A stretch of DNA of 64,000 nucleotides, from the NCBI GenBank assembly GCA_016748015.1, contig JAAOMT010000436.1:238703-302702 (forward strand). Direction: 5' to 3'. Each line of letters opens with the position of its first letter. The stretch's first letter is position 1. This DNA is from Geosiphon pyriformis uo1 (lineage: Eukaryota > Fungi > Glomeromycota). The translations under genes were made by a program, and so were the position numbers. Positions 12,048 through 61,970 of the stretch are shown here, piece after piece. Below the pieces are notes generated by a model, which was given only the letters and a program-made list of their open reading frames with translations, did no database searches and had not been told where the DNA came from.

Positions 12048-12180
12048 TTTTTTATTATTATCATTTAACAAGCGAGATCCAAACACTACCTAGAACTATA
12101 CATTAAAGAAATGATCTAAACTAGGTGTGAATCATGCACTGTCTACACGTGACCAGCTACTCGAGCCAGTCAGAACAACA

Positions 12181-18660: not shown

Positions 18661-19469
18661 TAACAGAGCCAACAGTGGCCTCGTAATTGAAGAATGGTTT
18701 TGATTTATCGTACTGAATGGTAAAAAAAACTTCTTTTGAAAAAACTTTTAACTCTTTTTTGGGAATTTTGGACGAAAAAGAGAAAGAAGTTTTTGCAAGA
18801 ATATTATTATAATTAATTACAATAAAAAATTGGGTTTTAAAACTATATATATATTTGTAAAAATAAGTTTTTTTTTTTAATGTTAAATTAATTAAAGTAT
18901 TTAATCTGAATTTTTAAGAAATTAAAATATAATTTTACATTTATAACTGAATTTATTTAAACAGTTATAAAAAATATAACCAATTTTATTAAAAATTAAT
19001 CTTTTTAATTATAATAAATTTTACAATTTAAATTCAAAAAAAACCAACTTATATTTACATATTATATTAATAAATATTTTTAATAACAAAAAAGCAATTA
19101 ATTTTATTAAAATTTAAAATTTTTATTTTTTAAATTAACAAAAACAATTTTATTATTAAAAATCAAATTAAACTTTGATATTTATAATAGTATTAATATT
19201 TAAAGATTTTTATTAAATATAATTTTTTTGGTAAAATATTAATTTTATAATAATATTATTAAATATTTTTTTGAAGTTAACAATAATAAATAAAAATTTT
19301 AATATTAATTATCAAAAAACCAATTTATTAATTTTAAAGATTTTAAATTAAAAAAATAATTAATTTAGCATTAAAAACATTATAAAAGACAAATTTTTTT
19401 TTAAATAACAAAATAAATTTTAACATTATTTTTGATTATTAAAACTAACTAGCAACCAAAAAAAACTTT

Positions 19470-19882
19470 TTTTTTCTATAATCTAAATTTTTCAAAAAGC
19501 CAATTTTTTAAATAAAAAGTTTTTTGTATTTTGTTTTTCTTTGCTATTTTATTTTTACAATTTTTCAAAACAAACTTTTTTGTTAATATTAATAGTACTA
19601 TATTTAAAAAAAATTAGTTAAAGATGTTGTTTTAAGCTTTATAAGTAACAATCTAATACAAAAACTCAAAATGTTTATTAACAAAATTAAATACTCAAAT
19701 AATAAAACAGATTTGAAGTTTAAAATATTTTTATATAATATTAGTCAGTTTAAAAACATAGATATTATTTTTAATAATACAAAAAAAAACTTAGTTATAC
19801 ATAATATTAATTATAATATTAACAGTAAAAATAAAAAATCTTTAAACTTTTATATTAATATTTTAAAAACAAAGTGATTTAA
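19470..19882 (+). pseudogene. 5' part of an older AT-eroded LINE ORF1 (host of LINE B), continuing at 36929-37215
   Basis: Joined across the LINE B TSD. The continuation translates SIKKFFILNINFLVVKSKLTMTKVQVIRKIFSNMNGF, which aligns to LINE A ORF1 PVRKSFALDIGLDKVAGKSSQKKLVVVRKLFSGINGF. Confidence 0.55.
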
Positions 19883-25055: not shown

Positions 25056-25670
25056 TGTTACGAGATGGTTTTCTTGTTATATTTAATTGCTGATATTCCG
25101 TTTTAATTACGATCAGTTTTTCATGAGTTCCTCAATTCTATTTGTGTGATAATATCACTGTTACACTGAAGGCTTTCTTTTTACTGTTGCGATGTAAGTT
25201 ATTCTTCGATTGTTGTGTGTGTTTATGTACTCCTTCTTAGAGGCTGAACTAAAATCTACTCACTGTCTGAGGTCTTCTCTGAGGCTATTTTTGCAATTGC
25301 CTGATGTGTTTCTCTAATCTAGAAACACAGAATGTTAATGGTCTTTAGCACTTTTCTAATTCTTACAATAAAGCTTTTATCAATTAGTAACAACGTGAAT
25401 AATCTTGATCAAGGATTATTCTTCCAAGGGATTCAGTTGATGAATGATAGTTTCATTCAATAAATAATACAAGTAAGTTTCTTAATACTTTGGGTTGTGA
25501 TAATTCAGTTTTAAATATTCTTTTTCATTTCTTTTTGATTTTAAAGGTTTCTTGGGATATTTAATTTGAAAGNNNNNNNNNNNNNNNNNNNNTTATTATT
25601 GTGCTATATTATGATTGAATAGTTTGTATTATTTTTATGATTCTTTTTGCTAAATTCTTAAACTGTAACA
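25056..25670 (-). repeat. Gypsy-1 3' LTR (contains assembly gap 25573-25592)
   Basis: TGTTAC...GTAACA ends and near-identical to 34496-35353. The 20 Ns stand in for roughly 260 bp. Confidence 0.95.
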
Positions 25671-25683
25671 TTATCCCCTCCTT

Positions 25684-26352
25684 TCAAGATTGAGCTCCGT
25701 CGAAATCGAAGTTAATTTCTTCATTAAATTTTAAGTTACTATAGTGGTTCAATACTGTGTTATTAATTTGTTGTTGTAATTCTTGAAATTGTGAGTTGGT
25801 AAGTCATCCAATACTGTTGGTTGTTATTATGTTCATGGTTGGGTCCAACAATAATTTGTGACAGTTTTTAAATGCTTTGAAAATTCTGTAAACTGTTTTT
25901 GAATGGAATGTAGTGTTGGTTTTTCCAATAAAAGGTTCTAATAGTTAGATAGTTGTTTTGTCAAACACTCTAGTTAAGTCTTTTGAGTATAATGTTTGTA
26001 TGTTCAAATGCTTTCCTAGTTGATAATAACAGTAATTAATTAGAAATTTCGTTTTCAAGTTGCTAAATATGTCTGGTGTTAATTCATTTATTTCTATTTC
26101 TTCCATTATTAATGTATTGCCCAATGCTATCTCTAATTTTTCAATAACTTTGCTAATAAATTTGTTGTTATATTTGGCAATATTATATGGTTCGAAATTA
26201 TGTTCTTTTCTTGTTTTTGGATTTTCTATTGTTTTTTTTATGTATGTTATTTTGGAGCTATTAACTGTGATTTCTAGATCGAATTTTAATTATTGTAAGT
26301 TTTCAACTAATTGTTGAGTTATATTGTTGATGTTTTCTGGAATAAGTATCAT
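25684..26352 (-). pseudogene. Gypsy-1 ORF3 (223 codons, 3 in-frame stops), unknown function
   Basis: MILIPENINNIT...NYCYYQLGKHLNIQTLY...VYRIFKAF...IG*LTNSQFQELQQQI...DFDGAQS*; homologous to 39146-39874 and 59308-59964. Confidence 0.8.
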
Positions 26353-26436
26353 TGTTTTAATTTTGACTGCTATTTTGGAATTTTTTGCATGCGTTTTTAT
26401 GGTTGTTAAATCATTTTTGCTGTGATCTAAAATTAA

Positions 26437-27816
26437 TTATTTTTTCAAATAATGTTTAATTAAAACTATTGGTTCTAAATCTTGTGGAATTTGTTCTGGT
26501 AGAATTAAAGGTAATTGTGTTCCAATTCTGAGTGTTTTTGTTGTTATTACTGGTTTACTGTAATAGAATTTTAGCCAGTTACCATGTGCTGCTTTTTTTA
26601 ATATTTTATCATCTAGTCTTAGCTTGTATGCTCTATTTCCAAGTATTTCGTGAATATAAAATGGTCTATCCCACTTGTGATCAAATTTTCCACTCCACTG
26701 TTTTTCCATTTTTGTATGATGCAACAATACTTTATCTCCAATTTTGTAGCTAATTATATTATCTGGTAACTGGTTATCATGTCTCACTTTTTGTTGTTCT
26801 TGTGATTGTTCAATATTTTGTGCTGCTTTTCTTTTTTTGTTTTCTAAAGTTCCTATTAATTCGTATGTTCTTCTAAGTAGTGTTTCTTGGAATGTTGCTT
26901 CCGTGATAGTGTCACTTGGATAAGTTGGGATAGTAAGTTCAACTGGTAATGTGGCTTTTTTTCCATAAACTAGTTCAAACAGTGTGAATTGTGTAGTATC
27001 TTGTTTTACTGTTCTATATGCTAGTAGTACTGCTGGTATGAACAAATTCCATTCTTTTTCATGTTCGTTACTAATTTTCGCCAGTGATTTGCATAATGTG
27101 CGATTAAATCTTTCAACTAATCCATTTGTTTGAGGGTGGTATGGTGATGACAGTGGTCGCTTGATTCCAAATTTTTGGCTAAGTTCTTTTAAGGTGCTGT
27201 TTATAAAGTGTGTGCCCTAATCTGATAGCAATTCTTGTGGACATCCATGTCGGCAAATTAAGTTTTCATGTACGAATTGAGCTACGGAAATAGCATTAGC
27301 TGTTTTAATAGCTCTAGCTTCTGGCCATTTGGTGAGATAGTCCATGGCTATTGCAATATAACGGTTGTTTCTTGTTGTTATTGGTAAGGGTCCAATTAAA
27401 TCAATTTCGATTCTGTCAAATGGCTGTCCAACTTTTATTGGTCTTAATAATTCCGTTGTTTTTGCTCCTCCTCTTCATTGGTATGGGTCACAATTTCTTA
27501 TGTATTGGATTATGTCTGAACTCATTTTTGGCCAATAGTAATGGCTAGTTGCACGTTGAATGGTTGCTGTTTTTCCAAAGTGGCCTGAATGAATATCTGA
27601 GTGCATGTTAAATAAGATAGTTTCTTTTTCATCCGTGGTTATAACTCTTAATAGATTATCTGGATTTTGTCGATTCCAGTAATAAAGTATGTGATTTTGG
27701 ATGAAATAGTGTTTTGTTAATTTTTGGAGCTTAATTAGCTTTTTTACTGGCATTTTTTCCTCTATTTGTAGTGTTTCCAAGTATTGGCTGAGGTTTTTGT
27801 AAAGGTGGTTGTTCAT
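26437..27816 (-). pseudogene. Gypsy-1 integrase, separate ORF starting MNNHLYKNLSQYL
   Basis: HHCC-derived zinc domain, DYLTKWPEA, YHPQTNGLVERFNRTL and a GPY/F module (WDRPFYIHE). No chromodomain is evident. Confidence 0.9.
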
Positions 27817-29678
27817 TGTTGTTGTGACAGGTGGGTTGGTGATTTTTATGTGTGTCTCATTCTTGACAAACAGTCAGCATTAGCATTTTTGGTACCTTCT
27901 TTGTATTTGATAATATAATCGTATGATGCTAACGTTTGTGACCATCTGGCGTATTTTCCTTTTAGCGCTTTCTTGTTATTTAACCAGACCAGACCTCTAT
28001 GATCTGTCGTAATCTCAAAGGGTTGGTACCATAAATATGTGTCAAAGTGAACACAACTCCAGACTACTGCTAAGCATTTAAGTTCATGTGTTGCGTAGTT
28101 TTGTTCTGCTGTACTGAGACTTCTGCTGGCATAAGTGATTACATGTTCTCTTCTATTATCATCTTTTTGTGACAGAATGGTTCCAAGTCCAGTTCCAGAG
28201 ACATCTGTGGCCAAAATGAATTTCTTGTTGAAATTCGGATAGATTATTATTGGTGATTCAATGAGCTTTTGTCTAAGGTACTCAAAAGCTTTTTGTTGTG
28301 CTTCAGTCCATTCAAACTTCACATTTTTAGATAGTAGGTAATTAAGGGGTTTGGTGATGTTTGAAAAGTTTTCTACAAAGCGGCGGTAGTAAGATGTGAG
28401 TCCTAAAAAGCTTCTAACTTCTAAAACGTTTCGAGGTACTGGAAAATTTTTCACTTTGTCTATTTTTGATGGATCTGGTTTTATTCCATCTTTTTCAACT
28501 ACGTGTTCTAAAAATGCTAGCTCATTTTTCCCAAAGAAACATTTTTCTAGATTTAGTTTAAGTCCAGCGTGTCTTAATCTCTCAAAAACTTGTTGTAAAT
28601 GTTGGAGATGATCTGTGAATTTTGCCGAGAAAACATTTGTATCATCCAAGTAGACAACAACGGATTGCCACAGGATTCCGAAGTAAATTACGTCCATTAG
28701 TCTTTGGAATGTCGCGGGAGCATTTGTTAATCCAAATGGCATTACATTGAACTCATAGTTGCCATTTTGTGTTGTGAATGCTGTTTTATGCCTGTCCTTT
28801 GGGTCCATTTCCACTTGCCAGTACCCACTAGTCAAGTCCAGTGTAGAAAACCATTTTGCTCCTCCAAAAATGTCGAAGATTTCGTCAATTAATGGTATTG
28901 GGTATGAGTCTTTGGTTGTTTTGCTGTTTAGTTTGTGATAGTTGATGCAAAATCTAATTTTTCTGTTCTTTTTCTTTACTAAAACAACTGGTGAGGACTA
29001 TGGGCTCATTGATGGTTGTATTATTCCTTTTTCCAACATGCTTTGGACTTCTTCTTTGATAGAATTATGCTCCATTGGTGGGACACAGTAAGCGCATTGT
29101 TTTTCAGGTCTGGCGTCTCCAGTGGGGATTTGGTGTTGAACCAAGTTGGTTCTTCCAAATTCACCATTTCTTGAAAATATATCAGAGTATTTTAAAATTA
29201 ATGCTTTTAATTGTCACTGTTGGTCAGGATCCATTGTTCTAATGTTTAATTTGGCCAATTCTTCTGGCATAAATTGATATAATTCTAACGGTTGTTGCCA
29301 ATCTATTGAAGTGAGTTTACAGTAGAGGGCAATTTCTGGGAAATTTAGAATTTCTTGTGGTGTTGACACGTTTTCTAGCTCCGTTCCGAGGTATCCAATG
29401 ATGGTATCTTCCAGAATGTAAACGGGTTCTTCTGTGGTGTTTGTGATAGGAATTTTTATCCATTGAGCTTTATCAGCTGGAATAAAAAGGTTAGTAAGTC
29501 TTATGAGAAACTGTTGGCAAGTTTCTGGGTAGGGCTCAAATATTAGGTTTTTTTCTTTAATTGTCCTTTTTATTCTTATTTCTGATTTTTCATATGGTAG
29601 GAGCATGATAGACCGCTCATTTTTAATTACTTCACCTTTTTCCTCTATTGTTTCAGTGAAATTCGCTTCAATTCCTTT

Positions 29679-30080
29679 TCCTGTCGATCCGAAACCAAAA
29701 GTTCCTCTCATTGTTTGTGACAATTCCTCACAATTTTCCACTGGCACAAATTTTCCAATTTTTACCAATGGTAGAAAAATTGCTTGTGCAATCTTTTCCT
29801 TAGATTCAATGATATAAGGCTTTTTTGAATTGTTCTGTAGCAAAACCATCAAATTTCCAGTGTATCCAGAGTCAATTACTCCTCCTTGAATGCTTATTCC
29901 TTTTTTCGCAAGGCTTGATTGCAACACCATTTGAACTATTATTCCTGGCGGAATTTCAACTGCTATTTTTAGGTCGATTTTGGTGATGCTCTTGGGTGGT
30001 AACATTGTGGATTGGTCTTCCAGATAATGTAGATCAAATCCGGCGTCGGTTGAATGGGCTCTTTCGGGTATTATTTCTAA
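29679..30080 (-). pseudogene. dut: dUTPase domain in Gypsy-1 between protease and RT
   Basis: All five trimeric dUTPase motifs: DAGFDL, QSSLAKKG (RSS), GVIDSGYTG, KIAQ and RGTFGFGSTG. Confidence 0.95.
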
Positions 30081-32711
30081 GTGCCCATTGTCAAAGTATC
30101 GGATGTCAGTCACCTGTTCTAGGTCAGTATAGGCTACAAATTTTTCTGACTTGGGACTGTCAGATGAGTCTTGTTGATTTATTGATTGATTTTGAGACTG
30201 CTGATTCTCAATTTCCATTTTTTTTTCTAAGTCCCTTTCGTCTTGACACTCTTCACAGCACTGATTTTGGCACAGGATGAGACAGTTTTCACAGAGATAA
30301 GTGTTGATTTGGGTGAGGTATTGTTCTTGCTCTTGTCGAGTGGGGCATAGTTGTTGGTAGTAGTCCTGGAATTCGTCCACTGGGTCGAACATGTTGTAGC
30401 TGGCAACTTCATCGGCTACTTCAGCTGACTCTTTCCAACGTCGTATTTCTTCAGTGGTTCCTCCTTTTACTTTGGCTTGTGTGGTGTTGTACAACTCGTC
30501 CTCATCGTGTGGGTAGTGCTGTAGTCTTTTTAACGCTGCTTCAAATGGCGTTCCTCCTTTTATCCAGTCACAGATGAGGATCGTGTATTGGCAAGTTGCG
30601 TCACATGTTCCTCCTCTGCCTGGTAAGTTGTTCTAGTCACACCCTCTTGGTAATGGTTTTCCACAAGCGAGACACGGTTCCTCATCTCATTTTCCATGTC
30701 TTTCTGAGTAACTGTATTTTTCTTTGTTACAATGGTTACAATAGTAGTGGGTGGGGTTTCTTGGGTCTTCGTCTGGTGCGCTGCACGCAGTCATAGACGA
30801 GAGTTTCTTCTTGCAAACCAAGCATTCTAGCTTTGGTCTGCGTCGCTGGTGGTTTCTTTGTGAACTTACCTGGTTCCATTCGGATCTTTCTTCACTGGTC
30901 CATGTTGGTACGGCTGGTAGTCCTGTTCTTTGGTCATCAGCCCAAGAGAGCTGATAGGTTTCGATGGCTGGTAGTGCTGGATTTTCCTCAAATTCAAAGG
31001 TAAGTCTTTGGTTGGCACTGGGTTTTTGGAAGTGGCCACAGGTGGCTGGAATTTTGGCCTGGTGGCCATTATAATTGATCAGAAGCTCTTGGGTGGTCCA
31101 GTCTAGGGTGGCATTGGCTTTTGTTAGCCAGTCATTCCCTACTAACGCTTGATATTGTGTAGCATCCATTACTAATATTTTTATAGGTATTATTATGCCG
31201 TTAATTTCGAAAGGGAATGAGTTGATTTCGCCATAAGGCAGCTTTGTACTTCTATCGGCTGTTATAATTTGGGACATCACGACACGATCAACTTTGAAAC
31301 CCAGTTGGTTTACTAGTTGAAGCGTTACGATGCTTCCAGCGGATCCGCTGTTTAAGATAAGTTTGATTGGGATATTGTTTACAGTGGCTTCCATATACAT
31401 AGCAGTGATTGGGCGTTTTTTGTCCAATGCTACTCCACTAAACATAGCCTCGTTTTCCTCTAATTCAAAAGGAAAAATAGCTGCGAGACTGCTATCTTCG
31501 GTGGCAACTGCTGGTGGTATTGTCTGGCTCAATTTGAAAAAATTCTTGGTTCTGTTTATGTTTCTACTGTCATTGTTTCCGATGATCAGATTTTCTGGTA
31601 TATTAAGATAAGTTTGTTGATAATTTTGGTAGTTTGGATTGGTTTGCTGATTGGTTCTGGCGCAGTTTGGATTCCTCTGGACCAACACATTCTGGTTCCA
31701 CATGGGCTGATTTTGGGCCTTGGGACGCCAATTTGGGTTGGCTATCATGGACTGTTGCTGGTAAGCTCCTTGATTTTGATACGTGGTGGGATATTGGTGT
31801 GGTATTGGCGTGTACTGGTTTCTGGGCATTTGGAGTGGTGCATAGTAATTATTTTCACATGCTTCCTGTATCATTCGCGTTCAATATTGACTAATCAAAT
31901 GTCCTACGCATTTGCAAAAATAGCAGGTGCGCGTTTCTGTTCTGAATTCCTGGCGTGACGAGTGATTATTTTGACTGTCACTGACTTCCTGGCTGCGTCT
32001 TTGGGGTGGTTGGTATGTATTTTTTTTTGGATCCGGGATGAGGTAACTTTCTATTTTCTTAGAGAGTTCCTCCTCTAATCAGGTTACTCTTTTCTCTAAT
32101 GTTTCTGTTTTATTTTCCTCCATTACTATGTTAACTATTTGACTATGATTAGCTTCTTTCTCAGCCGATTCAAGGGCTCTGGCGAGCATAACAGCTTCTG
32201 GTAAGGAATTAGGGTGGGCAGGGCATACTCTTCTTAAAATGCTGCTTTTTAATCCTCTAATAAACTGATTTAAAACCTGAGGATTAGTGTAGTATCTTTG
32301 TTCAATTGCTTCAATCTGATGGCGAATTTGATTGAATCGAGCAAGATATTGGGTGACAGTTTCACCAGTATTTTGCTTGATAGTATTGAATTTGTTCTGT
32401 AGTTGGATTACGGCATTTGGGTTGCTAAAATACTCCAGGAGTGCATTTTTAAATTCGGCAAAGCTCGTGGGTTTTGTTTCTAGGCTTTGATACCACGAGT
32501 TGGCTGTGCCTTTCAGGAAGAAAGGTAATGTTTGAATTGCTCTTTGGTCATTCCAGTTATTTGCCTGGATGGCTTTTTGTGTTTCTCTGAGCTATGTGTG
32601 CATGTCCGTTTCTTCTTCCTCTCCTGAGAAATCTGTTAGTCTTGTAATGTATGGTGTGGTTATTTCGTTGCCGTTTTCTGCTAGTGGGTTTATTGGTCTA
32701 AGAGGAGGTGG

Positions 32712-33579
32712 TGTTATGATTTAAAAATTTAGCAAAAAGAATCATAAAAATAATACAAACTATTCAATCATAATATAACACAGTAATAATCTTAGAAAGG
32801 TAATGATTAACATAGTAGCAAACACCATTTCGCAATAGTGGCAAGCACCAGTTCACAATAGCAGCCAACACCAACTGGTGATAGCAGCAAACACCAGGTT
32901 GAAATATCAAAAAAAAAGTATTTTCTTGTAGAACTACAAACATGTATATATACAGTAGTTTTAATATTGGGAAATAAAAAAATCAAGTAATAAAAATCAT
33001 AACTTATCAAGCAACAGATCCAATTTTATCTAATAAACTCCACTTTAAATCATACTTTCAAATTAAATATCCCAAGAAACCTTTAAAAATCAAAAAGAAA
33101 TGAAAAAGAATATTTAAAACAGAACTATCACAACCCAAAGTATTAAGAAACTTACTTGTATTATTTATTGAATGAAACTATCATTCATCAACTGAATCCC
33201 TTGGAAGAATAATTCTTGATCAAAATTATTCACGTTGTTACTAATTGATAAAAGCTTTATTGTGAGAATTAGAAAAGTGCTAAAGACCATTAACATTCTG
33301 TGTTTCTAGATTAGAGAAATACATCAGGCAATTGCAAGGATAGCCTCAGAGAAGACCCCAGACAGTGGGTAGATTTCAGTTCAGCCTCTGAGAAGGAGTA
33401 CATAAACACACACAACAATTAAGAATTAAAGAATAACTTACATCACAACAGTAAAAAGAAAGCCTTCAGTGTAACAGTGACATTATCACACAAATAGAAT
33501 TGAGGAACTCACAAAAGACTGATTGCAATTAAAGTGGGATATCAGCAATTAAATATAACAAGAAAACCATCCCGTAACA
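32712..33579 (+). repeat. Solo LTR of the Gypsy-1 family inserted in opposite orientation within gag
   Basis: Reverse complement of the Gypsy-1 LTR, TG..CA ends, TSD GTGG (32708-32711 / 33580-33583). Confidence 0.93.
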
Positions 33580-34495
33580 GTGGGATGATATTTTTTTGAG
33601 TGTTCCTAAAGGTGGCTTCCCTTATATCCAGTTCTTTCTCTTGATTATGAGTTTCTTGGTTTCTGGACTGGCTGCTTGTTCCAGTGACTGGTCTTGTGAT
33701 TGTTTCTTTGCTGGTCTCTTTTTCGGATTCTGATTCAGACTCCTCTTCATGGTTTTCAAACCCGTTCTAAATTTTGGCTGAAAAAGAGGGTTTTGGAATA
33801 GTGATGAATATCCTCCTGTAATTGGTATGTTTCTCCAGTTACATTGTTTAATTTTATCTGTATAACTAGGAGTTCTTGGTGTTTGTGGAGTTGATGTTGA
33901 TAATGATGCAGCTCCTAATGGAATTTGTATCTTATTTTCTGGTGAAAAATAGTATGATTTATCTTCTGGTGAATAAATACGTTGTTTCTTTATTGATTAA
34001 ATGACAGTTTTCTTTGGCGTTTGAGCTGGTGTTCCTAGTTTTTGCTGGTTACTTTCCTGATTAGTTTCTAAATTTTCTTTGGTTTTGTTGGTGCGTTCTC
34101 TAGTGTTTCCTGTGGATATTGGAAAATTTTCATTGGCGTATTGCTCAATTTCTTGATGGATTTTGACAATAGTTGCGGCTATTACTGCTACTTCTTTTGT
34201 AGTGTATTGTAATAATTCTCTATACAATCTAAGTTTTGTGTCGTGTGGCTCTTCTTCTTTTCCTATATGATAATTTATTCTGGCATTGATATAATAAGTG
34301 AGGGCAGATTCTGCTGGACAACACCCTTCTGGTAATCCAAGATCACTTTGATTTTGTGTGTAAATAGCATGGCAGAATTCAAGAACAGTAAGATTAGAGG
34401 TTTTTGTTGCCACTTTTGTCTTTTTCTTTTTAGCAATGAATTATTGCTAATTATTATTTCCTTTTTGATTTTCTTTTCTCGTAGGGTTTACCAAA

Positions 34496-35353
34496 TATTA
34501 CAGGATAATTTTCTTGTTATATTTAATTGCTGATATCCCATTTTAATTGCAATCAGTTTTTCGTGAGTTCTTCAATTCTATTTGTGTGATAATGTCACTG
34601 TTACACTGAAGGCTTTCTTTTTACTGTTGCGATGTAAGTTATTCTTCGATTGTTGTGTGTGTTTATGTACTCCTTCTTAGAGGCTGAACTAAAATCTACT
34701 CACTGTCTGAGGTCTTCTCTGAGGCTATCTTTGCAATTGCCTGATGTGTTTCTCTAATCTAGAAACACAGAATGTTAATGGTCTTTAGCACTTTTCTAAT
34801 TCTTACAATAAAGCTTTTATCAATTAGTAACAATGTGAATAATCTTGATCAAGGATTATTCTTCCAAGGGATTCAGTTGATGAATGATAGTTTCATTCAA
34901 TAAATAATACAAGTAAGTTTCTTAATACTTTGGGTTGTGATAATTTAGTTTTAAATATTCTTTTTCATTTCTTTTTGATTTAAAGGTTTCTTGGGATATT
35001 TAATTTGAAAGTATGATTTAAAGTAAAGTTTGTTGGATAAAATTGGATCTATTGCTTGATAAGTTATGATTTTTATTACTTGATTGATTATTTCCCAATA
35101 TTAAAACTACTGTATATATATATGTTTGTAGTTCTACAAGAAAATACTTTCTTTTTGATATTTCAACCTGGTGTTTGCTGCTATCACCAGTTGGTGTTGG
35201 CTGCTATTGTGAACTGGTGCTTGCCACTATAGTGAGATGGTGTTTGCTACTATGTTAATCATTACCTTTCTAAGATTATTACTGTGCTATATTATAATTG
35301 AATAGTTTGTATTATTTTTATGATTCTTTTTGCTAAATTCTTAAACCGTAACA
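34496..35353 (-). repeat. Gypsy-1 5' LTR (858 bp)
   Basis: Direct repeat of 25056-25670 with an adjacent PBS at about 34478-34493. Confidence 0.95.
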
Positions 35354-38300
35354 CTGGTTTGATCTTTCAGTTGCTTTTATTAATATGATGGCTCCCGTCT
35401 CTGTTACATTTTCTTCTGTTGGTGGAGTTGTCCCTCAAAATATTCTGGATTCGATTGAATTTGATTTGACTTGTGGTTGTCTGCTTGATGTTAGTTCTGA
35501 TAGTATTTCAGTATTTACTGATGATTCCTTGGCTGGTTTGAGTACTGTTAGCATGCAGGCTGGTGCAGCCGTTTTCTTTGATGGTGTTGATTTGGGTTTG
35601 GATGTTGTAGTTTCTGGTTTGGTGTCTTCTACTATGGTGGAATTGCAGGCTATTGCTTTGGCTCTTGAGTGTGTTCCTCTTTCCAGTTCTATTTATTTGT
35701 TCTCTAACAGTCAGGCAGCTTTGGATGCATGCAGATCTGAGCTGAGTCTAGTGGTTCTGGACTTTCAAAATCAATGCTGATTGAAATGCCATCATATTTC
35801 TAACTTGATTTGTAATAAGAATTTGGATGTCTCTTGGTTTAAAGTCAAAGGACATTTTGGTGTTGTGGATAATAAGTGGGCAGATGCTCTTGCTGTGGCT
35901 GCTTCAACGTCCGACCTTTTTTTTTCTTCATGTTTGACTGAGTCCTATATTTTGGTGGATGGTATAGCCGTTTCTGGAAATTCTAGATATTTTGTTTGTG
36001 ATATTTTCCATTGTGTGCATCATACTAAATGGGAGATTGGCTCTGGTTCTAAAATCTTGGTCTCCAGTTTGCATAAAAACATAGACTGGTGTAGGTCATC
36101 ATTCATGTGGCATCCTGATAAGCACATGGCCACTGATTTCACTGGTAAACGTTCTGCTGGTGCATGTACTTACTTTATGAAAGCTTTACATTATCAGCTG
36201 CCTATGGCTGTTCATAAATGCCTTTATAGTAGGTCTTATCCCAGCATTTTGTGCCTGTTTTGTGGTGGAGTCAAATTTTCTGATCATATTTTCTCATGTG
36301 GCTTTGATACTGCTATTCACGCCCAGCTGTTGGACACATACGCAGCTATCTGGGGAGCCCTCCCTGGTTTATCTCAGTCATTGTCCCGGCTTATACAACT
36401 TATGCTCTCTTGTGCCTCTGATGCCTTAGTGTGTTCGGCGTTTTGTAAGGGTTTTATGTTCAAACTTTTGTTTTCAGGAAGTGGTTTCAGTTTTTGAAAA
36501 CTCCAAAATTGCTTGTTGTAAGATGGTGGAATTTGTAAGAAATTTCTGTCTTGCTTTTAGAGACGAGGTGTGGTTGGTTTGTGTGAGTCACTGCACTTTG
36601 ATGGAGAAGTGTGGCCTGATTCCTGGTAATGGTTTGATTCCTAATCTGGTGCATGGCCTTCCTTTGGTTTTTTCTGCTGGGGTGATAAAACTGTTGGGTA
36701 TTGTGGAGGCTTTTGGCATTTACTTTGGCTTTCGCACATTCTGTTTATTTTTTTCAGGCATTGGGGATTCTGTATTAGTTGTTATAAATGTTTAGTGTTG
36801 TTCTGATTGGCCTGAGTGGCTGGTCATGTGTAAAAAATGCATGATTCACACCTAGTTTAGATCTCTTATGATGTATTGTTTTAGGTAGTGTTTGGACTTC
36901 ACTCATTAAACAAATAAAAATAAAATAAAAAGTGATTTAATTTTAAGAAAATAACAGTTTTTTTTTGGCTTATATAATTTTTATTATAATAATATGTTTT
37001 TTTCTTTCTTTTAAACATTTTTTGAAAAAAAGATAAATTAATTCTAAAATTGTTAATACTTAAATAGTAATTTCTATTAAAAAATTCTTTATTTTAAATA
37101 TTAATTTTTTAGTAGTTAAAAGTAAATTAACAATGACCAAAGTACAAGTTATCAGAAAAATTTTCTCAAATATGAATGGTTTTAAAAAGTCATTATTTTC
37201 TTAAAATTTAAAGAAATTATCTAATTTATATATTTAAAAAAATTCCAAAACAAGTAGTTTAATTGATTAGTAAGAATAAAATTATAATAAATAATATTAT
37301 AAAATAATTTTTTTTGTATATTAAATATTAATATTTTGTTTTAATTACAATCAATTTTTTATGAATTCCTTGATTTTATTTGTGTAATAATATTAATATT
37401 ATACTAAAAACTATTTTTTTAATATTGTAATATAAGTTATTTCTTAATTTTTAATTGTCATATATATTTATATATATTTTTCTAAAAACTGAATTAAAAT
37501 TTACTTATTGTTTTGGAATTTTTTTTGAAGCTATCTTTGTAATTAACTAATGTGTTTTTTTAATTTAAAAATATAAAATGTTAATATTCATTAATATATT
37601 TTTTTAATTTTTATAATAAAGCTTCTATTTTTTTTTTAACGTTTTACAAGTGAGATCTAAACACTACCTAATACAATACATCATACAAATAATCTAAACT
37701 AGGTGTCAATTATGTTTTTTCTATATGTGATCAGTCACTTAAGCTAATCAGAACAACACTAAGCACCTATATATACTAAAATTGAGTTTTCAATATCCGA
37801 AAAAAATAAACAAGATCTACACAAACTAAAACCAATACCAAGCACTTTAACAATGCCAAGTAATTTAACTATATTAGTAAAAAACATTGAAGACAATCCA
37901 AAAACCAAAACTAATATTGAATCATTATATGGTATTAACTCATTTTTTTCTATAAAGACATGATGTTTAACTTGAACTAATCAAACCTTATTTCTAAAAA
38001 CAAGACAGAAGTTTTGCACAAAATCTACAATTTTTTGATATGCGACTACAAAACTCTTAAAGACAGAAACAGTCTTCTAAAACCAATTACTAAGGACAAA
38101 ACTCTTATAAAAAGCTGTATATACTACAGCATCTAAAGCATAGGATTTCATCAACTAAAACACACATAAAAAAGAATAAAAATAATCAGAAAGCACTCTC
38201 TAAGTATTTGCATATATGTTGTTACTGGAGGTTTTTGGTCTCTTTTCTGTAATGTTGTTGATACTTATTTGCTGTGAATTCACGTTTTCAGGAAGTAGTT

Positions 38301-39145
38301 GAACCTCCAATAACTGAATTTATCTTCAAATTATCTTCTATAATTTGAACTTGCTGGGCTTATGAGTGGAATGGCCAATTCTATGCCAGTTGCTTTATGT
38401 AGTTACATTGTAGTAAACGTCAACTCTTTCCCAGGAATTGCTTGTCTGGAAGCTCACTAAAAATGTGTAGTTACTTTGCTGTGAAAGTCAACTCTTCTAC
38501 AGGAATCTTGTCTGTAGGCTACCCTAATGATTGTAATAAGAAAAGAAACAAAAAATAAAAGAAGTGTAAAAGAAATAAGATTTTATCAAGAGAAATGTTT
38601 TCTATCCAGACCTGGAGTCACTAACAGTTTACTGAAATTGGTAGCTAATCAATTTCGAAATGTTAGTTGGTTTTTGGGGATTTTTCAAGAACAATAATTA
38701 AAAAATTTGGTTTTTCAAATTATTTGGTATTTATTTCTTTTTGTGTGTATAGAAATGGTTCTAAGTGATAAATCTAAAGTAAGATACATTTTCTCGAAGA
38801 GAAAAGCTCTTCTTTTATACAACTTGTTATAACACTATTCTATGAACTTGAACTTTGCTATTTTCTACAATTTTGCTGAACTAAAGATACATTTCGGCGA
38901 ACTATTAGATATTTTGGTGAATTATTAATTATTTCGGCAAATTTCTACAAATTTTGGCAAACTTCTGAATATTACATAGTTTGGGGTATTGCATGATTGA
39001 TCATCGCAATTAGGTTACATTTGTGTTGTGTACAATTTGGGTTATTAATTAAATGATAATTTCAAACATTTTTGCTAATGTAATAAGTGATTATTTGATG
39101 ATAATATATGTTAATTAATGATAGGAATTATAAGATAATTTCATG

Positions 39146-39874
39146 CTAAATAATATCTCTAATTTCATCTGGTAACATAACCTCCTTCTTAAGACTGAGC
39201 TTTGTCAAAGTCCAAGTACTGTCTGTTATTTCCAAATAATAATCCAAAATTATTGAAGAAATTTGGTCTGAAAATTGTTGAAATTTTAGTTCTGTGAGCT
39301 TTTCAATATATTGAATCTTCAAAGGTTGAAAAATTGAGTTTTGCAGTACGTTTTTACAGGTGTGGAATAGGTCATAAAGTCTAAGAGCAGCTCTAAGCCT
39401 GTAGCGACTGTTTGTTGATCCAGCTGTTGTCTTGAATTTGTTGTGGAGTTGTTTCTGAATAGCTTCTTTTGTGAGGTTTGCTGTTGTAAGTTCTAGTTTC
39501 CATTCGTAGAGTGTTTTTTCAATGTGAAAATATCTATAGATTGGAGAATATTCAGTGTTTTCCTCATTAAGACACAGTTGAAGTTTTTGTTGAATTGTAG
39601 TATTTGGTGAAATACTAATCAGAGTGAGCATTAGGTTTTCTCTTAAAGCAAGCTTTAAAAGTTCTGGCAGGTAAATTCCAGTATAACTTCTTGTGTTCTT
39701 TTTATATGGGTGATATTTTTGTGAATTTGGGGCTAAATTTGTAACTACTTCTGTTTGAGTATAATTTATGTGGTTTCCAGTAACAGTAATAGATAATTTA
39801 GGTATTGTTTTTAAAGCTAACATTAGTTTTTGGAATAATTGTTGAATGTTTTGAGGAATAGTTATTATACGCAA
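39146..39874 (-). CDS. Gypsy-2 ORF3 (242 aa open), unknown function, env position
   Basis: Uninterrupted ORF between integrase and PPT, homologous to Gypsy-1 ORF3 (IxIPxNI, LxITV, YFHIEKTL, RLYDLF, IEKLTELKFQ). The start ATG has probably mutated to ATA. Confidence 0.8.
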   Translation of the reverse strand: MRIITIPQNIQQLFQKLMLALKTIPKLSITVTGNHINYTQTEVVTNLAPNSQKYHPYKKNTRSYTGIYLPELLKLALRENLMLTLISISPNTTIQQKLQLCLNEENTEYSPIYRYFHIEKTLYEWKLELTTANLTKEAIQKQLHNKFKTTAGSTNSRYRLRAALRLYDLFHTCKNVLQNSIFQPLKIQYIEKLTELKFQQFSDQISSIILDYYLEITDSTWTLTKLSLKKEVMLPDEIRDII

Positions 39875-39984
39875 TTGAAAAAAAAAATAAAAAATTATTT
39901 TTGGTGTATGGGTTTTTATGTTATTTTTGTTTTGTTTTTGTGAGATTGTTTCTAAATTATAAGAGAATAACTAGTAAAATTAAA

Positions 39985-41370
39985 TTAAGTGTTCAGTTCA
40001 GAAGGTTGTTCAATGACAATTATTGGTTCTAAGTTTCAGGGAATATCTTCGGGACTGACCAAAGGGGAATGTGTACCAATTTGTGGAATTAATGGTTCAG
40101 AATTGTTTCTAAAATGATAGTGTTTCAAATGATCTCCATGTGCAATTTTTGCTAGGATTTTGTCATCAAGTCTTAGCTTGTATGATCCGTTGTCTAGGAC
40201 TTCATGGATAAAGAATGGTCCATCCTATTTATTTTCAAATTTTCCACTCCATTGTTTTTCAGCTTTAGTTCTGTGTAAGAGAACTTTGTTTCCAATTTTA
40301 AATTCATTGGTGACTGAAGGTAATTTGTCATCATGCCATTTTTTTTGTTGAGCTTGGAAGTGTTCAATATGGGTGGCTGCTATTCGTCGTTTTCCTTTCA
40401 ATGTGCTAAGCAGAGTATAGGCTCTTCACTAAAGCATTTCTTGGAAATTGTTTTCATCAATCAGTTGTGCTGGGTATGTTTCCACTGTGAAACTAATTGG
40501 TAATGTTGTCATCCTTCCATAAGTTAAATCAAATGGTGTGTGTTTTGTGATATCTTGTTTTAATGTCCTATATGCTAGTAACACTGATGGAATAAAGAGA
40601 TCCTATTCTTGCTCAAAATCGGTTAAGACTTTGGCTAATGACTCACACAATGTTCTGTTAAAATGTTCTACAAGTCCATTTGTTTGTGGATAGTAGGGTG
40701 AAAACAGAGGTCTTTTGATATTGAATTGTTCATAAATTTCTTGTATTAGGTTGTTCACAAAGTGTGTTTCCTGATCAGATAAAAGTTCAATTGGACATCC
40801 GTGTCTACAAATGATGTCTTCATAGATGAAATTTGCTACTGATTTCACATCTGCTCATTGAATGGCTCTGGCTTCAGGCCATTTAGTAAGATAGTCTATA
40901 GCTACTACAATATAATGGTTTTCTTAAGTGGTAATAGATAGTGGTCTGACTAAATCGATACCAACTCTGTCAAAAGGCTGTCCAACTTTGATTGGATTTA
41001 AAGATTCTGTAGGGCGAGTTTCTCCTCTTCTTTGACAACTATCACAAGATTCAACATATTCGTGAATGTCTTTTCTCATTCGAGGCCAAAAGTAGTATTC
41101 TGGTGTTCTTTGGGTGGTGCTATCTTTTCCGAAGTGTGCTGATGAAGGATCTGAGTGCATGTTGTATAAAATGGTCTCTTTTTCCGGTTCTTGTATTAAT
41201 CTGAGTGGTTTGGTTGGGTTTTTGAAATTTCGATGATAGATAATGTTGTTGTGTAGAAAATATTGTTTGGCTTGTTGTTGTAACCAATGTTTTTTGTCTG
41301 GGGACCAATCTGTTGGGATTGTTAATGTCTCCAAATATTGTTTGAGATTGTTGTAGTTTTCGGGGTTTAT
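39985..41370 (-). pseudogene. Gypsy-2 integrase, separate ORF (ATG>ATA, (M)NPENYNNLKQYL)
   Basis: MH..AHFG..CDSCQRRG, DYLTKWPEA, QTNGLVEHFNRTL and GPFFIHEV motifs. Confidence 0.88.
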
Positions 41371-41420
41371 TGTTTGTTGTTTTGATGCTGTTAATTCAAA
41401 TGGGTGTTGATTTTTGTTTT

Positions 41421-44400
41421 TTAATCTTGCCTCATTCTTGAGAGACAATTAATGTTGGTGTGGAGTTTTCCTGGTTTGTGGTGTATGATGTATTGGTAAT
41501 TAGCTAAAAATCCTGTCCATCAGGTTTGTTTTGTGTTCAGCTGGGTGTTTTTGTTTTGAAGCCATTTAAGTTCAATATTATCAGTGATAATATCAAATTT
41601 TTTGGGTCTGAGGTAAAGGTTGAAGTGATGTAGGATCCAGATTACTGCTGCGGTTTCTAATTCTGTTACAGGGTAGTTCTTTTTGGCTGGCTTTAATGTT
41701 CTACTTGTATAAGCAATTACTCGCTCATTTCCATTGTCATCTAACTGTGATAGGATGGCACCAAAAGCAGTATAAGAAGCGTCAGTTGCTAACCGGAATT
41801 GGTTGCTAAAGTCTGAGTAGGCAAGAATTGGAGCTGTTGTGAGTTTTTTCTTAAGTATCTCGAAGGCATTTTGGTGTTCTTTTGTCTATTTGTATTTGAC
41901 ATTTTTAGTAGTGAGCTGGTTGAGAGGTTTTGCAATTTCTGAGAATTCTTTGATGAATTTTCAGTAATAGGATGTTAATCCAATAAATCTTCTTAATTCT
42001 GTGGTATTTTGTGGAGTCTTGAAGTTTTTGACAGTACTGATTTTTTTGGGGTCTGGTTTAATTCCATCTTTGCTAACAATGTGACCAAGAAAAGCTAAAC
42101 TTGTTTTTCTGAAGTAGCATTTTTCAATGTTTAGTTTCAATCCTGCTTTCCGTAATCGTTGAAAAACTTCTCGTAGGTGAATTAAATGTAGCTCGAAAGA
42201 TGGTAAATAAACATTAGTGTTATCAAGATAAACTACTACTGATTTCCAAAGGAGGCCTTTGTAAACAACATCCATGAGTCTTTGGAATGTTGCTGGTGCA
42301 TTGCATAATCCGAAAGGCATTACATTGAACTCGTAATTTCTTCCTTGAGTGGTGAATGCTGTTTTGGGGTGGTCTTTGGGATCCATAGCAACTTGTCAGT
42401 ATCCACTCTCTAAATCTAATATTGAAAAGTATTTGGACTTTCCAAGGACATCCAACATGTCATCAATTCGGAAAAGAGGGTAGACATCCCCAATAGTGAC
42501 ACTGTTGAGTTGTCGGTAATCAACACAAAATCGTATCTTTCCATTTTTCTTTTTAACTAGGACCACAGATGAGACCCATGGGCTTATTGATGGTTGAATA
42601 AGCCCATTGTTAAGCATCCGTTGTACTTCTTCTTGGATAAATTGGTGACTTTCTGGGGCGACTTGGTAGGCTTGTTGTCGCCTTAGTTTGGCATCTCCTG
42701 TATAGATTTGGTGTTGAACCAAATCAGTTCTTCCTAAGTCATTGTTGTTTTTGGTGAAGATGTCAGCAAATTCTGCAATTAGCTCTTTGAGCTGGGTCTG
42801 TTGTTGTGGTTCAAGTTGTCCCATGTTGATTCGAGATAGTTTTTTCATGACAATATGGTAGTTTTCAGAGCTAGGATTTGGGTTGATTTTTGGTAGTGAA
42901 TGTTCAATAATTTCAGGAAAATCAGGAACTGTTTGGGGTAATTCTTGTTAAAATATATTACTGTGAATAACTCCAATTTCTAAATTATTTAATAAAATTA
43001 TGGAGTAATTATTGGGGTTGTAAAAAGTAACTCGGACTTTCTTTGTTCCTTCTGGAATATAAATGTTTGGGATCGAAATATTATGTTCCAAGCAGACTTG
43101 TTCATTGGACTCAAAAATTTGTTGTGTGGTTGTTGGCTTTGTACAAGTGTAGATTTCCGGATGTTCTCCAAAGGGTAAGATGGTAATCGGTTGTGGAAGT
43201 CTGAGAATCTGGTGGGATTTGTTCTGTGTATTAAGAGCTATATTAACTGGAACTGTGAATCATCCAGTTGAACCAAAACCTTGAGTTCCTCTATCACTTT
43301 TTCCTAATTGTTTTCTTTGATTGACTAGTTGCAAACCCGAAATGTTAATTAAGGGTAGGTAAATAGCTTGGGCAATTTTTTCAGCATGTTTGATCTTAAA
43401 TGGTTTGTCAGTTTCATTTTGAAACATTACTGTTATGTTTCCAGTATATCCAGCATCAATTATTCCTCCTCTGACATTGATTCTTTTGCTTGCCAGAGAG
43501 GACCAGGAGGCAATTTGAACCATTGCTCCTGGTGGGATTTCGAGTGCAATTTTGAGGTTGATTTTTGTGAGAGATTTGGGTTTGAAAACAAGAGTATTCT
43601 TGCCTGGATATCTTAGGTCATATCCAGCATCAATTTCGTGTGCTTTTTCAGGTTTTATTCCTTGTCTGTTGTTGTTAAGGTATTTAAGTTGTAAGGCAGG
43701 CTGATTTTCAATAAGGTAGATGGGTGTTGTTTTAATTTCTTCCATTTCTTCAGGTTCTCCAAATTCAATTTTATTCTTATCATTTTCGCTGGGTAAAGAG
43801 ATACTAAGAGCATAGCATTCAGGACACCATTGTTCATCGCAAGGGATAATGCATTCTTCATATAGCCTAATGTTCATTTGCTCTAATCATTGAATTTAAG
43901 CTTCTTGGGTCGGGTAGGTGTGACTTGCAATTTGGTAGTAGACTTCTACTTTATCTTCGTAATCGAATCCAGCCAATTCCATAGTGTATTCAATATATTC
44001 TGCTTCCTTCATTTAACAAACATCTTCTTGGGTAGCTCCATTAATTAATGCCATTGCTAAGTCGAAAATCATCTCAGCATCATGAGAGTAGTGATAAAGT
44101 TTGTTGAGAGCACTGTTGTATGCTGCATTAAAGGGTGTTCCTCTTTTTACTTTTTCTGAAATTGATAAAGCATATTGGCAGGTCTGATTGCAGATGCCTC
44201 TTCTCATTGCTACATCAATCCAATTGCATTCTTCCAGTAGCATATCTCCACAAGTCAAACAAGAGGTGTTGTCCCATTTTTTACTTCTTTTTATTAGATG
44301 GCCCCATCGCTCTCTGTGACAAGTCTTGCAGTAATAACAAGTATGATTCTCATATTCTTCTTCAGGTGAAATGCAGACTCTCATTGACGATAGTTTCTTG

Positions 44401-47045
44401 TGGCAGTTCTTACATTTAAGGGGAATATAGGGGCGTTGTTTTCTTGGTTCAGGTTTTGAGTAAGGTATATTCCATTCAGAGGTTTCAAGTTTAGTGTGTG
44501 GGATAAAATGTTCTTGTTCTGTTTCATCAGCCCAGTTGGACATTGATCCAAGAGCCATGAATATTTCGATTATTGGTTTTTCTTCTTCTGGTTCAAATTC
44601 AAAAGCTGGGGCTTTTTCAGAGCATTTGTTGAATGTACCACAAATGGCAGGTATCCAGGCGTGTTGTCCTTGGTAGGAGATTGTTAACTCTTGTGTTTCC
44701 CAATTCAGATTAGCATTGGCTTTTTGAAGCCAATCATTTCCGACAAGAGCTTGGTACTGGGGTGCGTCCATTATAAGAACTTTAACTGGAATGGTGATTC
44801 CATCAAGAGTGAATGGAAAATTGTCAATTTTTCCTACTGGGGTCTTTTTTATGCCATCGGCAGTGACAATTACTGTTTGAGCTGGTTGGTCGACATTTTT
44901 TTTCAACTGTTGTATTAACTGGTAGGTAATAATGCTTCCGGCGAATTCACTGTCTAGGATTAAGCAAATTGGCTTTCCTTTTACTTCAGCTTCTGTGTAC
45001 ATTGCAGTGATGGCTTTTTGTTCATTAGCTGCTGCATTGCTAAGCAAGAATGGTGATTCATTTGCTTCAAATTCAAAAGGAAAAATATCAGAAAGATTGG
45101 CGTTTTCAGCAATTCGGGCTGGTGGAATAGTGGTGTGGTTATAAGAAGAGTTTCGTTGTTGTTGTGCTACAGCTCTACCTTCCGAGAGTGCAGTATGGTG
45201 AAAATCCTGTTCTTCTGGCATTGTTAAATAATTGGGTTGAGTGTGGTAATAATTGGGTCTTGGTTGAGTGGTATTTCGGGGAACCAATTGGTTGTTCGAA
45301 CTGATTCTACTGTTGTTTACTTGGTATCGGTTTTGTGGTGTAAATTGATTTTGTGTAATCAGTCTTTGAGCAGGTACTTAATAAAGTTGTGTGGGTGGTT
45401 GTTGGTATTGCTGTTGGATTGATTGTGGAGTGGGCTAATAATAGTTATTTTGGTATTGGGGTCTTGGTGAATAGTAAGCTGGTGGTGATGGTTGATAATA
45501 AGATTGCTGTGGTGGAGAATAATGTTGATTACCCCTATTTTGTTGGTCTCGTTGCAGCTTTCTGCAATCTCTTTTTCAGTGGCCAGAGATTCCACAGTAA
45601 TAACAATTCTGGGGCTGGTTATTGGAAAGTGGTGCAAAGTTATTTTGATTTCGTCTTTGGGGTGGTTAATATCTTTGGGGTTGTTGTTGTTGTTGATTGG
45701 TAAAATAATTTTTGACCTTCTTTGTAAGTTGGTCAATTTTTTCCTCAGCTGCTGAGCTGGTTTCTCCAATTGCCAAATTTACAAGTTTTGTACAATTGGC
45801 TTCTTCCATGGCCATTTCGTATCTTTTTACATGCTGTATGACAGAGTTTAAATCTTCTGGCGTGTGTGAGTGAACCTTTTTAATTAGTTTATCTTTTAGA
45901 CCAGCAATAAATTGATCCAAGATTTGAGCATTGAAATAATAATCGTTTGTCTCGAGTTGGTGAATCCGTTTGAGAAGTTTGTTGAATTTCCCAATATAAG
46001 TCATAACGGATTCGGAGAGTTCTTGTTTGATATTTCAAAAACAATTGCGAAGAGTGATGGAGGTATTATTGTTGGTGAACTGTTCAAGAAAGGCTGCTTT
46101 AAAAGCATTCCAATCATTGAATGAGGCGGCAAGGTTTTCAAACCATTCTCCTGCTGTTCCTTTAAGAAAGTAGGGAATTGTTCTTAACATTCTGGTAGTG
46201 TTCCATCCATTTGCATCTTCAGTTTTAGTAACTTGGTTGAGCCATTCTTGGGAACTGGTCTCAATATCTTCTCCATTGAATTCAGAGATTTTTGTGATGT
46301 ATGTTGTCATTTCATTTTCTTCATTTTTACTGTCTATTGGTTCTTCTTTGGTTATTTCAGAGTTGTTTTCTTTATTTGCTGCTGTCTCAGAGTGTTCACT
46401 TTGATTTTCAGCTAGAAAATCAAGGAGATTGGAACTAGTTTGAAGAGGTTCTTGTTGTCTAATGGGACTTCTGAGTGATGTAAAATCTTCTGGTCTTGCA
46501 AATCAATTCAAGAGTGAATTAGGTGTTTGTGCTTGTGCAAGTGAAGCTGGAAAATGTGTAATAGTAAGTGGAAGTTTTGAGCTGGTTCCTTGTTCAGGTG
46601 TTTGTAGATGTTTGAATGATATTTTAGGAGTATTGGGTGTTGTGTGAACAGGTTGGTTATCTTTTTGTCTTTTGTTGCTACTGGTTTCAGGTTCAGATTC
46701 GAGTTCAAAGGCAAATTGTGCATTTGCAGGATATTTTTCTTCACAGAATTGAATGATATTATAATCGAGTTCCTCAAAATAAGTAGCGCAAGCTTCAGCA
46801 CTAATGTTTTCTGATTCAGTGTTGGAATAGTGTAGTATGTTCTCAAGAAAATCTCTTTTAACTGTTGTAATGTTATAGTTCTCAAAGAGGTAGTCATTGA
46901 TTCGATTTTCGATGTATTGAAAAAGTGTTTTCTTGAAAGCTATGATTCTGTCGCGTATTTCAAATCATTGTTTGCAGTGTGTGTAAATCGATTGATAGTA
47001 CTCTAAGGTTGTGATGTCTGAGGCGGTCGCCACTTTGAATTTGTT
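41421..47045 (-). pseudogene. Gypsy-2 gag-PR-Cys-rich-dUTPase-RT-RNaseH polyprotein
   Basis: Capsid, LILDSEFAGS protease, dUTPase at about 43261-43660 (DAGYDL, SSLASK, IIDAGYTG, KIAQ, RGTQGFGSTG), RT and RNase H ending CLSRMRQD*. Confidence 0.92.
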
Positions 47046-61400: not shown

Positions 61401-61970
61401 AATTTTGTTATAATTTGGGTTAAAATGTTTAGATTTGTTTTATTCATAACAATTTATTGGCATTTATATTCTTTTTTCTCTTTTTATAGTGTACTGTAAA
61501 AGTGTATAATAATAGTGCTATTTTTCATCTTGCATGTTAATTGTCTTCAAATTCTTGTTTTTGGATTAAAGTCAATCTTTTGTGATCAGTATGCACTTCA
61601 AATTTCTGGCTTAAGTATTTTTTTCATTTCATAACTGTCCAATAAATTGCTAAGTGTTCTAATGCCAGTATTTTATAATTTTTTTCAGCTGGTATTAAGT
61701 TTTGGCTGACATATGCTATTGAATATTCTTTTCCATCTGGTTTTTTTTGTGATAGTATTGCTCTCAATGCTTTGATTTGATGCATCAATAGTAATGATAA
61801 ATAATTTGCTATGATCTGAATAGATTAGTACTGGAGTCTGAATAAGCTTTTTTCTTAATGTGTTAAAAGCTTTTTGTTGTATTTTAGTTCATTCATATTT
61901 AATATTTTTGGTTTGTAGATAATACAATGATTGAGCCAGTTTGAAAAAGTTTTTGATAAAATGATAATAG
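58430..61970 (-). mobile_element. Element E: 3' part of a degraded Gypsy (3' LTR 58430-59294, ORF3 ~59308-59964, integrase 59989-61369, RNase H/RT end), interrupted by F
   Basis: LTR related to D, PPT at 59295-59310, and integrase and RNase H motifs with many stops. Confidence 0.85.

Follow-up and report, generated by a model that had tools for sequence, protein, structure and literature searches.

Integrase outside Pol: Ty3/Gypsy-type elements with a separate integrase gene in Geosiphon pyriformis and related metagenome loci

How does a long terminal repeat (LTR) retrotransposon supply itself with integrase if the enzyme is not made as part of Pol? Inside Pol, integrase has its route into the particle and its amount is set as well. 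This question is raised by a stretch of 64,000 nucleotides from the fungus Geosiphon pyriformis uo1 (Glomeromycota; GenBank assembly GCA_016748015.1, contig JAAOMT010000436.1, positions 238,703 to 302,702 of the forward strand), hereafter the window, which contains three elements of Ty3/Gypsy type: G1, on which we focus, G2 and the remnant E. In these elements and their relatives, Pol ends at a stop codon and integrase occupies a separate frame with a conserved start; the elements arranged in this way fall on a single branch, and part of them carry a third open reading frame (ORF3) that belongs to a conserved family.

G1 lies on the minus strand at 25056-35353 and is flanked by the 4-bp target site duplication (TSD) CTGG. 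The main part of its ORF1 (27846..32707) is a single frame with seven internal stops and codes, in order, for capsid, zinc knuckle, protease, a Cys-rich block (about 30210-30839), dUTPase (about 29690-30080), reverse transcriptase (RT) and RNase H. At the RNase H/integrase junction (27814..27848), this frame closes with TAA at 27846-27848, a 29-nt spacer without ATG follows, and integrase begins at its own ATG (27814-27816). The integrase ORF (26437..27816; 459 codons, two internal stops) is of the H2C2-rve-SH3 type, and ORF3 (25684..26352; about 220 codons, three internal stops) is a member of a family predicted to be all-helical. G2 (38220..48028, minus strand; LTRs 38220-39177 and 47076-48028; TSD ATGT) has its ORF1 in one frame from about 47054 to 41421 (stop 41421-41423), followed by integrase (41370-39985) and an ORF3 without internal stops (39865-39146). 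A single frame runs from gag through protease, dUTPase and RT to RNase H in both elements, and Pol stops four codons past RNase H. Element E (59294..61900, minus strand; LTR from 59294) retains RNase H, integrase and ORF3; its Pol stop (about 61444-61446) lies one codon past the RNase H match, its integrase ATG at 61369 and its ORF3 ATG at 59933. Integrase is in another frame than Pol and starts 29 nt (G1), 50 nt (G2) or 74 nt (E) behind the stop, with ATG in G1 and E and with ATA at the corresponding position of G2.

These coordinates and frames confirm the layout proposed in an earlier sequence-only reading of the window, that is, three ORFs in G1 and G2 and the RNase H/integrase/ORF3 part in E, and its TSDs of 4 bp were also found in G1 and G2. 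Its statement that the three LTRs differ holds for G1 against G2 and for G1 against E, since blastn matched the G1 5' LTR neither to the G2 LTR nor to the E LTR region; the terminal sequence that it gave for them fails in the 5' LTR of G1, which ends in TA and not in CA. All three elements are dead copies: besides the stops of G1 in Pol and integrase, G2 has 17 premature stops in ORF1 and seven in integrase, and the integrase of E is frameshifted.

The many stops in all three copies, and LTR differences that are almost all transitions (all 15 between the two LTRs of G1, over 516 columns), would suit the explanation that mutational decay or faulty assembly produced both the split and ORF3. The relatives of these elements make this scarcely credible. 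Among the 120 matches listed in a search for longer proteins with the RT-RNase H part of G1, many of the closest (52-58% identical) end a few residues past RNase H or carry a tail free of integrase. As proteins without any tail could have been cut at contig ends, the DNA of the loci was fetched. Alignment of integrases located 80 metagenome loci, 34 of which have RNase H upstream; integrase is split from Pol in 23 of these and fused in 11, the fused loci scoring lower (262-377 bits versus 345-693 for split loci). The 46 loci without RNase H in reach were not counted, and the set includes the near-duplicates L016/L017 and L011/L052. Intact relatives have open gag-pol frames of 1500-1800 residues that stop at or after RNase H and lack integrase. 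The integrase relatives are 381-453 residues long, in a search limited to 252-804 residues in which fused forms could not appear; Met is the first residue in 120 of 121 integrases, and 72 of the 121 have 75-79 residues ahead of the zinc-binding His motif. Moreover, 1307 contig pieces of the same family over 27200-27900 show the Pol stop and the integrase ATG without an indel or a variant of at least 20%, and the internal stop of the G1 integrase varies among the same pieces. It should be noted that the contigs compared here (X1-X3) represent one sample, possibly the same source as the window, and are not independent support. Finally, codon positions 1/2/3 of ORF3 are 44/56/34% identical in eight intact loci, as expected for selection on the ORF3 protein. 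The artefact explanation is largely refuted by the locus survey, the contig comparison and the RT-RNase H tree (below), and with split integrase in 23 of 34 loci, a single RT-RNase H branch and a constant junction, we are highly confident that the layout is fixed across copies and relatives as the trait of a lineage.

The RT-RNase H tree comprised 132 rows, nine proteins and two loci having been dropped because their matches were incomplete. A branch of 70 rows, with a Shimodaira-Hasegawa-like approximate likelihood ratio test (SH-aLRT) value of 95, takes in all 11 split elements of the tree, together with 35 proteins that end within 25 residues past RNase H, 22 with an integrase-free tail and two fused ones; of the remaining 62 rows, 51 have integrase as part of the protein, 10 are tailed and one is short. 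In a bootstrapped tree of 63 rows, 33 ingroup rows form one side of a branch (83/99), and the fused L055, on a long branch, falls outside them. The neighbours of the split branch in these trees are elements with fused Pol.

Several points weaken this part of the argument. The 83/99 branch was not starred and its ingroup had been picked from the earlier tree; the trees contain database matches only, with no named clade references; and P0100, from Rhizophagus clarus, is annotated as fused. As P0100 is without the RNase H end and the integrase start, its fusion looks like a gene-model join that skips the junction. The hosts of the lineage are likely to be Glomeromycotina fungi, because the only organism-named integrase matches are from Rhizophagus irregularis (4 of 120 listed), P0100 comes from R. 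clarus and L089 is located in the assembly of Candidatus Glomeribacter gigasporarum, an endosymbiont of a Glomeromycotina fungus. A search of viral contigs returned nothing with a single protein query and five distant loci with an alignment query.

Two other features of Pol and ORF1 were seen among the relatives. In one subclade (L017, L021, L033, P0045, P0056 and P0057), a Pol tail of 150-590 residues follows RNase H, and only then come the stop and the separate integrase; the four tails that were checked had no Pfam match. The ORF1 of the intact relatives L006:3226, L014:4112, L017:6804, L018:2501 and L087:3499 starts with a His..Cys-x2-Cys motif, possibly an N-terminal zinc module, and the capsid domain follows.

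By what route could the separate integrase be expressed? We favour stop-and-restart translation, to which we assign a probability of about one half. Gag, protease, RT and RNase H form one frame that terminates after RNase H, and some ribosomes would then re-initiate at the integrase AUG of the same (genomic) RNA, without scanning where stop and start signals overlap, or else by scanning a short way across a spacer poor in ATGs. With gag-pol in a single frame, restarting would keep integrase below the amount of Gag, and the free enzyme would need some way into the particle or to the cDNA other than as a part of Gag-Pol. Across 25 junctions (the 23 split loci, G1 and E), the gap ranges from -8 to 827 nt and is at most 163 nt in 21. 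Four junctions are overlaps (with TAATG in L020 and ATGA in L027 and L063), 17 have spacers of 24-163 nt and four have spacers of 365-827 nt. The 17 short spacers contain five ATGs against 12.1 expected (P 0.02), and the integrase ATG stands in a strong Kozak context, with A at -3 in 28 of 38 cases (local A 0.40, P 2e-5). It is because of the four overlaps, the ATG-poor short spacers and the lack of a shared acceptor position that stop-and-restart is preferred.

The same junctions also furnish the arguments on the other side. The four long spacers hold 45 ATGs, where 40 are expected, and simple re-initiation leaves them unexplained; the spacer of L016 is probably a Pol tail that has broken down and that of L044 contains intervening ORFs, which leaves L008 and L033. 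Many gaps exceed the distances over which coupling usually operates according to the account in PMC5972666 (within about 14-29 nt, and 63 nt for LINE-1). A stem-loop between stop and AUG in one subclade (below) fits internal initiation equally, and every step of expression has been inferred from sequence.

A spliced subgenomic RNA, with a donor near the 5' LTR and an acceptor before the integrase ATG as in env/ORF3 messages, would account for the long ATG-rich spacers as well as for the strong Kozak context. Foamy viruses have a separate spliced pol mRNA. The ORF3s of LTR elements typically come from spliced messages too, as far as the text of PMC5408684 describes them. Splicing nevertheless seems unlikely, although it is a serious competitor: 7 of the 25 junctions lack a YAG as far as 80 nt from the ATG (listed as empty are G1, E, L006, L011, L030, L045, L052 and L064, of which L052 resembles L011), the acceptor position is not shared among junctions and the stop/start overlaps are left unexplained. 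Programmed frameshifting or stop readthrough to a fused Pol-integrase is much harder to maintain. G1, G2 and E are all in one phase, and the integrase frame of G1 and G2 is open back across the RNase H end, as frameshifting would have it; however, the 25 junctions occur in all three phases (0/1/2 in 8/6/11 cases) and with all three stop codons, and many loci have an in-frame stop 2-9 codons ahead of the integrase ATG. The fixed position of this Met and its strong Kozak context argue against both mechanisms, which we consider very improbable.

Internal ribosome entry, or a TATA-less internal promoter, is a somewhat more doubtful proposal than splicing, and would have its signal in a single subclade. 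Here a 48-nt stem-loop with a conserved, purine-rich bulge of 12 nt lies directly upstream of the integrase ATG (for example L016:1125-1172, L012:581-629, L018:290-337 and L088:157-204, with 11 more loci). Eight of its 12 pairs vary on both sides and 94.7% of cells pair, a result equalled in none of 500 shuffles, the structure having been derived from the same sequences that were used to score pairing. A search of 84 sources found the pattern in 14 loci, 11 of which were training sequences; it was seen again in L088, with new paired changes. Against this proposal, the stem-loop is missing from the window and from most split loci, and before integrase there is neither a TATA excess nor any other shared upstream signal that we could see. 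No Rfam match to the stem-loop was found in the 14 loci at E values up to 1. One match of the pattern in phage-like coding DNA among the viral contigs was taken as chance, and a TATA promoter before integrase was rejected as a candidate (TATAWA in 4 of 38 cases versus 4.2 in shuffles).

Behind integrase, ORF3 proved to be a conserved protein family of 489 clusters at 50% identity, as the sequence-only reading would require, with the codon-position pattern of selection given above. A profile built from intact loci, without window sequence, finds the ORF3 of G1 (E 2e-7) and of G2 (E 4e-5), and the ORFs downstream of integrase in the intact loci align with one another. The profiles missed the ORF3 of E, for which homology is based on pairwise alignments with G1 and L007; none of 500 shuffles reached the score of G1 with G2 or of G1 with E, whereas the direct comparison of G2 with E was not significant (62 of 500). 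ORF3 proteins are about 145-230 residues long, with conserved Arg, Tyr and Gly, and the predicted structure is all-helical with a predicted local distance difference test (pLDDT) score of 97. They have no membrane segment (a hydrophobic 19-mer above 1.8 in 1 of 134), and the term 'retrovirus-like' was thus overstated. Comparisons with Pfam gave no family and only three single weak matches, those with Atlas no usable match, those with PDB sequences nothing with a first profile and a weak repeat-like match with a second, Foldseek no match at E 0.001, and VIA a best Z of 4.4, which is not above noise. The lack of matches does not by itself show a new fold. Tentatively, ORF3 might act inside the cell as an accessory protein with nucleic acid or protein as its binding partner, and not as an envelope. 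In one database protein (P0284), the integrase core and ORF3 are joined, whether by a true fusion or by a joined gene model.

ORF3 would be made from a short mRNA driven by a TATA promoter located where the integrase gene ends, a proposal that we consider slightly favoured. TATAWA occurs at -35 to -56 before ORF3 in 9 of 15 loci, where 1.4 are expected and none of 2000 shuffles equals the count; as a control, it was found in 10 of 202 windows of integrase coding DNA. The ORF3 of E also has a TATA, at -42. On the negative side, G1 and G2 are without TATAWA within 130 nt of ORF3, six of the nine matches overlap integrase codons or the integrase stop, and in L087 the motif is farther off, about 120-145 nt upstream. 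In addition, only 15 of the 27 non-fused loci that have 400 nt or more of downstream DNA yielded an ORF3 (0 of 12 fused), and most ORF3-positive loci had contributed to the ORF3 profile.

The accessory gene set attributed to the lineage has to be qualified: the three-ORF layout is fixed, whereas only some members of the split lineage have dUTPase, the Cys-rich block or ORF3. The full Cys-rich block is confined to G1 and G2 among the sequences compared (37% identity between them), and its Atlas scores of 0.76-0.77 to zinc-finger-like clusters are a lead only. The trait common to the lineage is the detached integrase. This enzyme has H2C2 and rve domains and a weak SH3-type match at the C-terminus; no chromodomain match was obtained in the integrases of G1, L006 and L018, which end shortly after the SH3-type part, in agreement with the earlier description.

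A lineage lacking the Pol link must set the level of integrase and deliver the enzyme otherwise, so that the need for a polyprotein becomes directly testable. It also offers an uncharacterised protein family, ORF3, and a candidate regulatory RNA. As a speculation that we consider rather unlikely in its entirety, these could be the marks of a clade of fungal LTR elements, ancient, widespread and so far undescribed, in which pol has turned polycistronic, integrase is under RNA-level control (stop-restart, with structured RNA in one subclade), and a clade-specific helical protein of new fold with a promoter of its own guides the free integrase to the particle or cDNA. For annotation, such elements could be read as broken elements, spliced gene models or stand-alone integrase transposons in mycorrhizal fungal genomes, in which LTR elements make up as much as 41% of DNA in the figures given in PMC11952901.

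The remaining features of G1 are its 3' LTR (25056..25670, minus strand; N gap at 25573-25592) and 5' LTR (34496..35353, minus strand), which have the TSD in common, a polypurine tract (25671..25686, minus strand) overlapping the end of ORF3, and a TGG motif resembling a primer-binding site (PBS) after the 5' LTR (34478..34495, minus strand; putative PBS); no tRNA genes were found within the window. The start of ORF1 is broken by a solo LTR of the G1 family in inverted orientation (32712..33579, plus strand; TSD GTGG), absent from other copies, which skip it in the contig comparison, and by a copy-level frameshift near 33760 in the N-terminal extension (33584..34425, minus strand), which has weak similarity to its G2 counterpart. 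In the region 25713-27492, X1 and X2 contigs skip 1778 nt, with most of integrase and ORF3 gone, and are probably a deletion-derived, non-autonomous subfamily. A 2908-nt contig (X2 record 9) is antisense to G1 over 30400-33950 with several GT..AG-like skips and may be a spliced antisense form, the run type being only guessed. An LTR fragment 71% alike to that of G1 lies at 37309-37628, and an inverted copy of the LTR start of E (82% alike) at 52550-52841. Elsewhere, the window contains three related non-LTR (long interspersed nuclear element-like) elements, at 12046-18913, 19867-25056 with 35354-36929, and 48065-52550, that match RT, endonuclease and RNase H; G1 seems to be inserted in the second, the two halves of which match another copy in the window. 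An open frame at 8899-9543 (minus strand) matches ribosomal protein uS3 of eukaryotic type, the stretch 10001-12000 is very AT-rich (11% GC), and degenerate tandem arrays occur at 54356-54588 and 54860-55402, with periods of 27 nt and about 87 nt.

The proposal of an undescribed lineage agrees with full-text literature searches, among them one on re-initiation, in which no account of a separate integrase gene in LTR elements was found; Repbase, GyDB, transposable element libraries of arbuscular mycorrhizal fungi and subscription journals, where an earlier account may exist, were outside these searches. No such gene appeared either in the text consulted of the papers cited here or of 10.1101/2021.03.30.436303, PMC10508981, PMC5911963, PMC11075540 and PMC6431247. 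Integrase is part of Pol in the elements described in PMC3248453, PMC5408684 and PMC13524379, as far as their accounts go. Canonical fungal Ty3/Gypsy elements, as presented in PMC3248453, share with the present ones LTR ends of TG..CA type, a PBS-like motif, a polypurine tract, a 4-bp TSD, the order gag-PR-RT-RH-IN and an H2C2-rve integrase, which is usually the last pol domain; in ours, Pol ends behind RNase H, and integrase starts at an ATG of its own and, unlike that of chromoviruses, has no chromodomain at its C-terminus. The sequence-only reading took canonical Ty3/Gypsy elements to have no dUTPase, but the enzyme lies between protease and RT, as here, in PosPlaTy3 of Postia and elements of Phanerochaete and Tuber (PMC2864245) and in the bdelloid rotifer elements Juno, Vesta and TelKA (PMC5408684), according to the descriptions there. 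The bdelloid elements also have GPY/F without chromodomain and ORF3s other than env, so that non-env third ORFs are already published; however, their pol is described in PMC5408684 as PR-RT-RH-IN in one gene, and their ORF3s are env-like, GDSL or DEDDy, whereas ours match no Pfam family or solved fold. A third ORF after pol is likewise reported for errantiviruses (PMC13524379) and lokiretroviruses (PMC7947760), in which it is a membrane fusion protein and integrase is inside pol in the accounts given; ORF3 is not such a membrane-anchored fusion glycoprotein. A separate integrase in lokiretroviruses or Odin elements, considered as a precedent, was not borne out by the relevant text of PMC7947760 and PMC9040795. 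Precedents for stop-restart in fungal viruses and non-LTR elements are given in PMC5972666 (victoriviruses, hypoviruses, SART1 and LINE-1); these systems resemble the junctions described here in their AUGA/UAAUG overlaps or short spacers and in RNA structure near the junction, but several of our spacers are longer, and those systems couple capsid to polymerase or ORF1 to ORF2, with no LTR integrase. Ginger DNA transposons have a stand-alone Gypsy-like rve integrase gene, as outlined in PMC5751038, and no RT; in the present elements the gene follows RT-RNase H directly and is enclosed by LTRs, and some stand-alone rve genes counted as Ginger could belong to the split lineage. With direct LTRs, a PBS-like motif, a polypurine tract, a short TSD, the order PR-RT-RH-IN and gag, RT, RNase H and integrase of Gypsy type, these elements have the features of Ty3/Gypsy (Metaviridae), and because integrase lies outside Pol they are best regarded as a Ty3/Gypsy-type variant and not as canonical members.

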